Shown: piece after piece, positions 7,401 to 9,030 of the stretch
How the letters are laid out: every line of letters starts with the position of its first letter
Numbering within the stretch: position 1 is the first letter of the stretch
DNA from: Coriobacteriaceae bacterium
GTDB taxonomy: Bacteria > Actinomycetota > Coriobacteriia > Coriobacteriales > QAMH01
Length of the DNA stretch: 45,815 bases
NCBI GenBank assembly: GCA_021203765.1
Contig: JAJQAN010000002.1
Span: forward strand, 1 to 45,815
Direction of reading: 5' to 3'
The notes under the pieces: model-generated
The model's input: the letters and a program-made list of their open reading frames with translations, nothing else
What the model was told of the DNA's origin: nothing
Databases searched by the model: none
Program-made: the position numbers and the translations under genes

Positions 7401-9030
7401 CTCGGCCCCGGTCAACATGGGGACGGCGGTCGGCATCATCGCCGCCCAGTCCATCGGCGAGCCGGGCACCCAGCTCACGATGCGCACCTTCCACACCGGC
7501 GGCGTCGCAGGCGAGGACATCACCCACGGCCTGCCGCGTGTCACCGAACTTTTCGAGGCACGGCGCCCGAAAGGCCTCGCCGTGCTCGCCGAGATCTCCG
7601 GCACCCTGCAGATCACCGGCGACAAGGACAGCCGCATCCTCACCATCAGCGACGACGAAGGCAACGTCCGCGAGTACCAGGTGAGCGCCCGTGCCCAGCT
7701 CATGCCCGGCATCACCGACATGTGCGAGGTCGAGATCGGCCAGCAGCTCACCAAGGGTTCCATCTACCCGCAGGACCTGCTGCGCCTGACCGACGTCAAC
7801 ACGACCCTGCGCTACATCGTCTCGCAGGTCCAGGACGTCTACACCTCCCAGGGCGTCGACATCTCCGACAAGCACATCGAAGTCATCGCCCGCCAGATGC
7901 TCCGCAAGGTCTCCGTCACCGACGCAGGCGACTCCACGTTCCTGCCCGGCGCACAGGTCAACCGCTGCGACTTCGAGGATGAGGTCGAACGCATCCTCGT
8001 CGAAGGCGGCGAGGTCCCGGTCGGAAAGCCGCTCATCCTAGGCATCACCAAGGCTTCGCTTGCGACCGACTCCTTCCTGTCGGCGGCATCGTTCCAGGAG
8101 ACGACCAAGGTACTCACCGACGCGGCCATCGAAGGACGCGTCGACAACCTCACCGGCCTGAAGGAGAACGTTCTCATCGGCAAGCCGATCCCCGCGGGCA
8201 CCGGCTTCAAGCTCTACCGCAACCTCCAGCTCACCTACAAGGGCGAGCGCATCGACCGCAGCGAGTCGACCGAGGACCAGCTGCCGGACTGGGCTCCCGA
8301 AGAGCTCAAGGAGACCGAGAGCCTGCTGCCGCAGCCGCAGGAGTGGTCGCTCGACGGCGAGGAATACCTCGGAGCCGTCCCCGGCGACCTCACGGGCCTG
8401 CTCGGCGGCAGCTACCTGGGCGGCCTGAACCGTCAGGTCCCGCCCGAGCTCGCCAAGCTCTACCTCTTCGACGACCTCGGCGTCTCGCAGCGCTGGTCGA
8501 ACAAGTTCTCCGAGGCCGGCATCGAGACGGTCGGCGACCTGGTCGGCAAGACCGAAGACGAGCTCTTCGCCATCGACGGCATCGGCGTCAAGGCGATCGA
8601 GGAGCTCCGCCACGGCCTGGAGGAGCGCGACCTGCTCTACCTGCTCGACGACCCGAAGAAGGCGGCCGAGCCGGATGCCGCCGCGCTGCTCGAGATGCTC
8701 TTCTCGCCCGAGGACGCCATGTACATGGGCGGGGAGGTCCCCAAGTCCTACAGCGCCGACCCCGACGACATCATCGGCGCACCGGTCGCCAACAAACCGC
8801 GTCCGGCCTCCGACGACGCGATGCTCGAGGAGCTGCTGGGAAGCCCGCTTGCCTCCGACGGCTTCAGCGTCACCGGATCGGAGGGCGAGGAGCTGATCGG
8901 CGGGGAGTCGGTCAACGCCGCCCAGGCCTCCGCGCCGGGAAGCGCAGGGGAAGAGGAGATGATCGGGGCGTCGGCCAACAGCGATACGGCCGATGCCGAA
9001 GACGGCCAGGGTCAGGATCCGCAGGAGTAA
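4483..9030 (+). CDS. rpoC: RNA polymerase beta' subunit with C-terminal extension
   Basis: Catalytic NADFDGD, N-terminal zinc-binding [19 protein letters not shown] and IPAGTG. About 270 extra C-terminal residues. Confidence 0.99.

Follow-up and report, generated by a model that had tools for sequence, protein, structure and literature searches.

An additional alpha-CTD-like domain at the C terminus of the RNA polymerase beta' subunit in Coriobacteriia

The stretch of DNA analyzed here (the window, 45,815 nucleotides [nt]) comprises positions 1 to 45,815 of contig JAJQAN010000002.1 from the Coriobacteriaceae bacterium assembly GCA_021203765.1 and carries rpoC and rpoA, which encode the beta' and alpha subunits of RNA polymerase. 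The frame of rpoC continues for 274 amino acids (aa) beyond the IPAGTG motif, and this tail bears a helix-hairpin-helix (HhH) domain that resembles the C-terminal domain (CTD) of alpha (Table 1). The alpha-CTD is the textbook example of a tethered module, through which the polymerase reads UP elements and receives activators. To our knowledge, models of bacterial transcription activation all assume two copies of it, both on alpha. Residues of the tail are numbered below from I1236, the start of IPAGTG (tail residue 1).

Table 1. Coordinates of rpoC, the segments of its C-terminal extension, and the comparator gene rpoA in the window
Feature	Position (nt)	Strand	Description
rpoC (beta')	4483..9030	+	1515 aa, single open frame including the extension; Pfam Rpb1 domains 1 to 5 plus PF03118
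IPAGTG motif, aa 1236-1241	8188..8205	+	Last universally conserved beta' core motif; P2, A3, T5, and G6 invariant in the 37-sequence alignment
22-residue conserved motif, aa 1267-1288	8281..8346	+	Class-wide, including the HhH-less family; predicted helix at tail 38-46
Gly/Tyr-rich variable linker, aa 1289-1322	8347..8448	+	Large alignment indels; predicted local distance difference test (pLDDT) score 51-58
Alpha-CTD-like HhH domain, aa 1323-1385	8449..8637	+	Pfam match at aa 1330-1381 (nt 8470-8625)
Order-specific region, aa 1386-1450	8638..8832	+	Conserved short motifs; net charge -10; other orders without the region
Acidic C-terminal tail, aa 1451-1515	8833..9027	+	Poorly conserved; 0 K/R, 14 D/E; opens with LEELL/LDELL helix motif
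rpoA with its own canonical CTD (comparator, outside the fusion)	26919..27869	+	PF03118 match at nt 27657-27842

A reading of the window made from the sequence alone (the sequence-only reading) had proposed an extra alpha-CTD-like domain on beta' at nt 8467 to 8634 (aa 1329 to 1384). The Pfam alpha-CTD model, PF03118, indeed matches there above its cut-off of 23.8 bits, giving 33.5 bits with the full-length protein, 36.1 bits with the isolated tail, and 38.9 bits in a six-frame search of the genome; RpoA's own CTD scores 97.7 bits as protein and 101.1 bits in the six-frame search. Since these are exactly the two PF03118 matches in the whole genome, RpoA keeps its own CTD and the beta' copy is additional, as proposed. 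When compared with the resident RpoA by BLASTP, the RpoC tail gave the same ungapped alignment that had been counted by hand, with 20 of 56 positions identical and 30 of 56 positive (E = 2e-7). Upstream of the fused domain lie Rpb1 domains 1 to 5 only, and RNA_pol_L and RNA_pol_A_bac sit on the separate rpoA gene; the beta' copy is therefore a relative of the domain and not a paralogue of alpha.

The profile and structure comparisons that the sequence-only reading had suggested both return alpha-CTDs, not generic HhH domains, as best matches. On the RpoC tail, the generic model HHH_5 (PF14520) reaches 16.0 and 18.0 bits, under its cut-off of 27. A phmmer search of Protein Data Bank (PDB) sequences with the tail gave 50 distinct matches at E ≤ 1, all of them RNA polymerase alpha subunits, the best being the Bacillus subtilis alpha-CTD (1e-5); NusA chains were not among these 50. 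AlphaFold2, given an alignment of 37 class sequences, modeled the 280-residue tail with pLDDT values of 92 to 96 at tail 91-150 and of 40 to 77 elsewhere. With this whole-tail model, no PDB match from Foldseek reached E ≤ 1e-3, since the query is long and mostly disordered and the domain within it is short. We therefore ranked structures by the Foldseek order and by VIA-align, run against 48,161 representative chains. The rows listed by Foldseek all belong to RNA polymerase entries, with chain lengths that suit alpha or an isolated alpha-CTD, and domain-only alignments to alpha-CTDs have a root mean square deviation (rmsd) of 1.3 to 1.8 Å over 52 to 61 columns. In the VIA-align search, the six best chains are alpha-CTDs (Z = 7.4 to 9.4), followed by RAD51-family N-terminal HhH domains (Z = 6.1 to 6.4), Y-family polymerase/Rev1 HhH domains (about 5), and, lower, SAM domains (about 4 to 4.8) and NusA AR (1u9l_B, 4.4). 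The structure searches also returned solved alpha-CTD complexes, for example with Spx, CAP, NusA-AR2, AfsR, RpaA, and ToxR. The domain thus belongs specifically to the alpha-CTD family and is not a generic HhH.

Support across nt 8200 to 8700, a point that the sequence-only reading had also raised, comes from independent metagenome contigs that bridge the junction of core and extension, one of 3672 nt over 7872-9200 and one of 851 nt over 8089-8934. The bridging contigs stem from four public runs of one study and from a strain that is about 95% identical, and they show continuity, not expression. In that strain, all rpoC indels fall in the acidic tail and preserve the reading frame: one inserts 3 nt, and three others each delete a single base within a span of 8 nt. 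A misassembly can for practical purposes be ruled out.

Mean pairwise identity along the tail, calculated from alignment A1 of the 37 class sequences, differs among the segments. The end of the beta' core (tail 1-20) has an identity of 0.73 within the window's order. The conserved motif (tail 32-53; stretch 31-50 scored) has 0.61 within the order and 0.55 across the class, and the linker (tail 54-87; 51-87 scored) falls to 0.32 and 0.23. The HhH domain (tail 88-150) has the highest identity of all tail segments, 0.80 within the order and 0.61 across the class. In other orders, the beta' tails are 164 to 229 aa long with a much longer linker, and this variation in linker length fits a flexible tether; beta' there stops a few residues past the HhH. 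Tail 151-215 was found only in the window's order, where AlphaFold2 predicts helices of moderate confidence at tail 156-159 and 164-172, and tail 216-280 has pLDDT values of 40 to 53 except for an LDELL-type helix at tail 208-218. Together these form an order-specific appendix of about 130 aa (nt 8638-9027) with conserved short motifs and a net charge of -24 over aa 1386-1515. Two lengths given by the sequence-only reading need adjusting. Its linker of about 85 aa holds as a variable tether, but that stretch contains the conserved motif at aa 1267-1288 and the variable part is about 34 aa. Its excess of about 270 aa agrees with the 274 residues past IPAGTG, but domain-less relatives are 1278 to 1315 aa long, so that the true excess is about 200 to 240 aa.

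The extension is widely distributed. Of 41 related genomes, 40 have an RpoC-type frame matched by the tail query (aa 1250-1515); the lone exception, a genome that is 74% complete, gave an RpoA-sized match only. A class-wide sample comprised 121 genomes, 57 from the window's order and 64 from other orders of the class; 11 matches were unlisted, and the counts are thus lower bounds. The survey of relatives envisaged by the sequence-only reading found the domain on Coriobacteriia beta' throughout the window's order (57/57 genomes). Of the 64 genomes from other orders, at least 34 also had an HhH in a beta'-sized frame, in families f14, f16 to f22, f24, f27, and f28. In family f15, none of the 25 genomes had an HhH in a beta' frame among the matches listed. 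We are all but certain that the fused domain is real, of alpha-CTD type, and conserved.

Beyond the class, PF03118 was found on a beta'-sized frame in 6 of 140 sampled genomes of the phylum, belonging to families f44, f50 (2/2), and f51 (3/5); seven genomes flagged as unpublished count only as negatives in these denominators. Two of the six, G169 (family f44; L029:1195-1824, minus strand) and G264 (L030), carry two tandem PF03118 copies on beta', the G169 tail scoring 81.7 bits. In G169, an RpoA-type frame (L061:108-701, minus strand) also bears two tandem CTD-like domains. When HhH-bearing tails from other lineages were scanned with PF03118, all eight (L013, L021, L022, L024, and L027 to L030) scored above the cut-off, at 28.0 to 81.7 bits. 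Among proteins of the f51 type, 11 beta' subunits of uncultured Actinomycetota with 1336 to 1408 aa carry the domain, and it is missing from neighbors of 1278 to 1315 aa, some of which bear the names Candidatus Solincola or Geothermincolales.

In a collection of 5.8 billion proteins, aa 1300-1400 matched 2154 proteins of beta' length. Named entries among the 120 matches listed are beta' subunits of Coriobacteriales, Coriobacteriia, Atopobiaceae, and Slackia, with one labeled "[bacterium]." All 120 of these beta' homologues bear a precomputed PF03118 tag, so that the domain is annotated in relatives, as the sequence-only reading had thought possible. In species-representative genomes, 580 of 599 candidate stretches were confirmed, and the 80 of the 580 that were kept include cultured taxa (Gordonibacter pamelaeae, Adlercreutzia equolifaciens, Slackia equolifaciens, Senegalimassilia anaerobia, Raoultibacter timonensis, and Eggerthella sp.). 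Four records (L084, L085, L093, and L135) have a Coriobacteriia-type beta' tail (45 to 56% identity to the query) under the titles Oscillibacter sp., Bacteroidaceae bacterium, Ruthenibacterium lactatiformans, and Eubacterium sp.; mislabeling or mixing of metagenome bins is probably the cause, rather than transfer.

The origin of the domain was addressed with a maximum-likelihood tree built from 76 PF03118 domains (78 columns), from which identical rows were removed and in which repeats from other proteins were limited to 11. The 37 beta' domains of Coriobacteriia form one group (support 89/95), within which the 25 from the window's order are a clade (99/98). This group is not nested in the RpoA CTDs of Coriobacteriia, which cluster apart. 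Its position outside the resident RpoA CTDs marks it as an old, separately evolving lineage and not as a recent copy of the resident CTD. A single fusion probably took place in the ancestor of the class, and the pattern of sequence conservation indicates that the domain has since been kept under strong purifying selection, apart from the resident RpoA CTD. The beta' domains of f44, f50, and f51 are scattered in the free tree, and a constraint that unites the 45 RpoC rows is not rejected (approximately unbiased test, p = 0.096); these fusions may have had one origin or several, both being compatible with the tree. A probable class-ancestral fusion, the roughly 130 residues that follow the domain, its higher acidity than that of RpoA CTDs, and zinc fingers in a sister family (below) are aspects absent from the sequence-only reading.

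Searched against 1.84 billion representative proteins, the 71-aa domain gave 865 matches at E ≤ 1e-3. Besides beta' fragments, the top matches are proteins with 3 to 11 tandem PF03118 repeats and SNF2/ResIII helicases with 3 to 4 C-terminal copies, the Pfam architectures having been taken from 7 of the 150 matches listed. The occurrence of PF03118 in repeat arrays and helicases identifies it as a portable module of which the beta' fusion is one use. The proteins of this kind that we noted are P0123, P0125, P0204, P0208, P0211, and P0265; besides repeat proteins and helicases, they include a 1788-aa protein with five copies. In f15, the beta' tails (L019:1453-1968 and L020:1459-2001, both plus strand) keep the LPDFAPEEL-type motif and the linker and then have two Cys-rich CCCH zinc-finger repeats and no HhH. 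They exceed the cut-offs of both DUF5763 (41.3 bits against 26.3) and zf-TRM13_CCCH (26.8 bits against 20.9). Family f15 represents a head swap on the same tether.

In Escherichia coli, the "265 determinant" of the alpha-CTD contacts DNA through R265, N268, N294, G296, K298, and S299. Residues 255 to 312 of E. coli alpha (10ma_G, 329 aa) align by phmmer to residues 78 to 135 of the tail query over equal lengths, with an offset of 1072. On this basis, R265, N268, N294, G296, K298, and S299 correspond to R1337, N1340, G1366, G1368, K1370, and A1371 of beta'. The sequence-only reading had the equivalents of R265, N268, G296, and K298 kept and N294 and S299 changed to G and A, and the offset in the PDB alignment agrees with it. 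Four of the six DNA-contact positions are thus kept in the window's beta' domain, a pattern compatible with DNA binding but no proof of it. Across the 37 class sequences, R1337, G1366, G1368, A1371, and E1374 are invariant, and W1338 (36), G1333 (36), F1342 (35), K1341 (34), and K1370 (34) are nearly so. K1341 lies at the position of E. coli C269, and the hairpin reads GIGxKA in the beta' domain versus NFGxKS in the RpoA CTDs of the same genomes.

The interpretation that we favor, at a probability of roughly 45%, is that the domain is a third tethered module that makes weak, largely sequence-unspecific DNA contact near the promoter or upstream of it, and that the same surface may also dock regulators. 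The conserved motif, the flexible linker, and the alpha-CTD-family domain would hang from the beta' C terminus as a third module of the alpha-CTD type. The equivalents of R265, G296, and K298, together with the lysine at the C269 position, would contact the minor groove and backbone of promoter-proximal or upstream DNA, and this contact could help to hold or position the polymerase; the same domain surface might dock regulators. In solved polymerases of other bacteria, the beta' C terminus lies by omega, on a face that would give access to upstream DNA and the RNA exit. It is the retention of these contact residues and the added lysine that makes weak, unspecific DNA contact the most likely activity. 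The zinc-finger swap in f15, the tandem beta' copies, and the helicase arrays are the pattern expected of a portable nucleic-acid-contact module.

Several observations count against DNA contact. Two of the six classical contact positions are changed in all 37 class sequences (N294 to G and S299 to A), and the N268 equivalent, N1340, is kept in 30 of 37 and is T, K, or D in the other 7. RpoA CTDs have no residues equivalent to W1338 and F1342, which may mark a protein interface. Finally, the net charge of aa 1323-1385 is -7, and over the 56-aa core the mean is -5.8 for beta' domains of the class (n = 37), whereas RpoA CTDs average -2.4 (n = 20) and PF03118 repeats in other proteins +0.4 (n = 11). 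The acidic character of the entire tail makes strong DNA affinity less likely and suits protein docking and a nucleic-acid mimic equally.

Protein docking is a serious alternative, although we hold it to be somewhat unlikely. Here, the HhH, joined in the window's order by the short motifs, would be a hub that binds transcription, sigma, or elongation factors and not DNA, and regulators would gain a third landing pad of the alpha-CTD kind. The alpha-CTD is a known target of many activators, and solved complexes of this kind are among the structure matches. The strong acidity of the domain and the near-invariance of W1338 and F1342, which RpoA CTDs lack, point the same way, as do the conserved short linear motifs and amphipathic helices behind the domain in the window's order. 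Against docking stand the invariance of the R265 and G296 equivalents, the retention of that of K298 in 34 of 37 sequences, the persistence of the domain in orders that have no motif-rich tail, and its replacement in f15 by zinc fingers of a type from nucleic-acid-handling proteins.

A broader and decidedly less probable interpretation treats the beta' C terminus of Coriobacteriia and some deep-branching Actinomycetota as a swappable platform, similar in principle to the CTD of eukaryotic Rpb1 and made up of a conserved anchor motif, a tether, and an exchangeable head (one or two HhH domains or CCCH zinc fingers), that would act as a built-in general transcription factor. Coriobacteriales would have added the motif-rich acidic tail, and the head might stabilize promoter complexes or recruit partners where RbpA, CarD, and delta are not found. 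In the window's own 1.2-Mb, 62-contig genome, which is 90% complete, RbpA and the HARE-HTH domain of delta (PF05066) were not found, nor was the delta domain found in the tail; stand-alone CarD was likewise not found in this 90%-complete genome, which gave an Mfd-sized match only. RbpA occurs in 0 of 17 fusion-bearing genomes and in 19 of all 151 genomes sampled from the phylum. We considered an anticorrelation between RbpA and the fusion as a sign of compensation and rejected it, since with RbpA in only 19 of 151 genomes overall the comparison is uninformative.

The same absences have been weighed for a built-in competitor of nucleic acids, comparable to delta or sigma 1.1, in which an HhH-anchored acidic tail would tune promoter selectivity and the release or recycling of polymerase. 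The acidic C-terminal half of Firmicutes delta has been reported to compete with nucleic acids, and the layout in the window, a folded domain of nucleic-acid type followed by an acidic disordered tail, parallels it: the net charge is -24 over aa 1386-1515, and the last 65 aa contain no K or R. HARE-HTH (delta), RbpA, and stand-alone CarD not being found in the 90%-complete genome would fit such a role, but RbpA is rare in the phylum sample regardless of the fusion and its absence is uninformative. Moreover, the acidic tail is confined to the window's order, and other orders end right after the HhH; competition cannot therefore be the ancestral role of the domain. We consider this explanation improbable overall, although for the order-specific acidic tail taken by itself it is plausible.

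Contact of the tethered HhH with nascent RNA or an RNA factor near the RNA exit is very improbable. The location of the beta' C terminus near omega and the emergence of the C-terminal extension near the RNA exit in Rpb1, the eukaryotic homologue, would permit it, and the f15 zinc fingers match zf-TRM13_CCCH, a tRNA methyltransferase motif; the acidic charge speaks against it, as does the fact that we know of no RNA-binding member of the alpha-CTD family. An artefact or decaying relic (a misassembly, a separate gene reached by read-through, or a neutral remnant), which the fragmented 62-contig genome might suggest, is effectively refuted by the continuous frame kept in 40 of 41 relatives and 57 of 57 genomes of the order, the independent contigs that bridge the junction with only in-frame rpoC indels, and a domain that is more strongly conserved than the end of the beta' core.

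Comparison with known systems places the beta' domain closest to the alpha-CTD itself, with which it shares family and fold (Z up to 9.4; rmsd 1.3 to 2.0 Å), a flexible tether to the core, and the equivalents of R265, N268, G296, and K298. Unlike the alpha-CTD, it sits on beta', in one copy per enzyme beside two alpha-CTDs, has near-invariant W at position 266 and K/F at 269/270, is far more acidic, and forms its own group in the tree. NusA AR1/AR2 are also small, acidic double-HhH modules at the C terminus of a transcription protein, and in E. coli the NusA AR repeats bind the alpha-CTD, but they match the beta' domain less well in structure (1u9l_B, Z = 4.4 versus 7.4 to 9.4). Firmicutes delta (RpoE) has a folded N-terminal domain and a long acidic disordered tail that competes with nucleic acids, the layout of the tail in the window's order; it differs in its HARE-HTH fold and in being a separate subunit, and the likeness is limited to the order-specific acidic part. 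The CTD of eukaryotic Rpb1 is similar in position only, as a flexible, motif-bearing platform at the C terminus of the homologous subunit; there is no sequence or repeat similarity and there are no heptads, and the beta' extension includes a folded HhH. Lineage-specific accretion domains of beta and beta' (SBHM/BEAN, HABAS) are likewise clade-specific, stably inherited extra domains, but they are insertions in the core with beta-rich folds and not a C-terminal helical HhH. The accretion-domain survey (PMC11515920) masks N- and C-terminal extensions and mentions neither HhH domains nor Coriobacteria.

A full-text literature search that included the accretion-domain survey turned up neither a description of an alpha-CTD-like domain on beta' nor a test of its function, though older surveys may mention the extension. 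The architecture is already in databases, where automated Pfam tags stand on thousands of entries. Here, a familiar domain family occupies a class-wide position on the enzyme for which we found no description. Nearly the whole class, including the abundant human-gut genera Eggerthella, Gordonibacter, Adlercreutzia, Slackia, and Senegalimassilia, has a third, separately evolved copy on beta', and because this domain is as tightly conserved as the surrounding catalytic core, it must have some function. Should it contact DNA, the promoter architecture of Coriobacteriia, and the way their promoters are predicted, would need revisiting; if it docks factors, it would constitute a new route of regulation; and if the C terminus is a swappable platform, the reading of promoters would be altered across an entire class of gut bacteria. 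These possibilities are directly testable, as the domain is small, is confidently modeled, and offers obvious sites for point mutants (R1337, K1370, and W1338); the zinc-finger swap in f15 and the tandem copies in other Actinomycetota offer natural comparison material. Genetic tools for E. lenta and other Coriobacteriia were reportedly described in a 2022 paper (PMC9734109).

Two minor observations concern the other subunit genes. The longest rpoA frame, which opens at 26919, starts at TTG, and an in-frame ATG (Met4) lies nine bases downstream, so that the true start is uncertain. The gene for omega, rpoZ, is present in the genome (C37:9113-9292).

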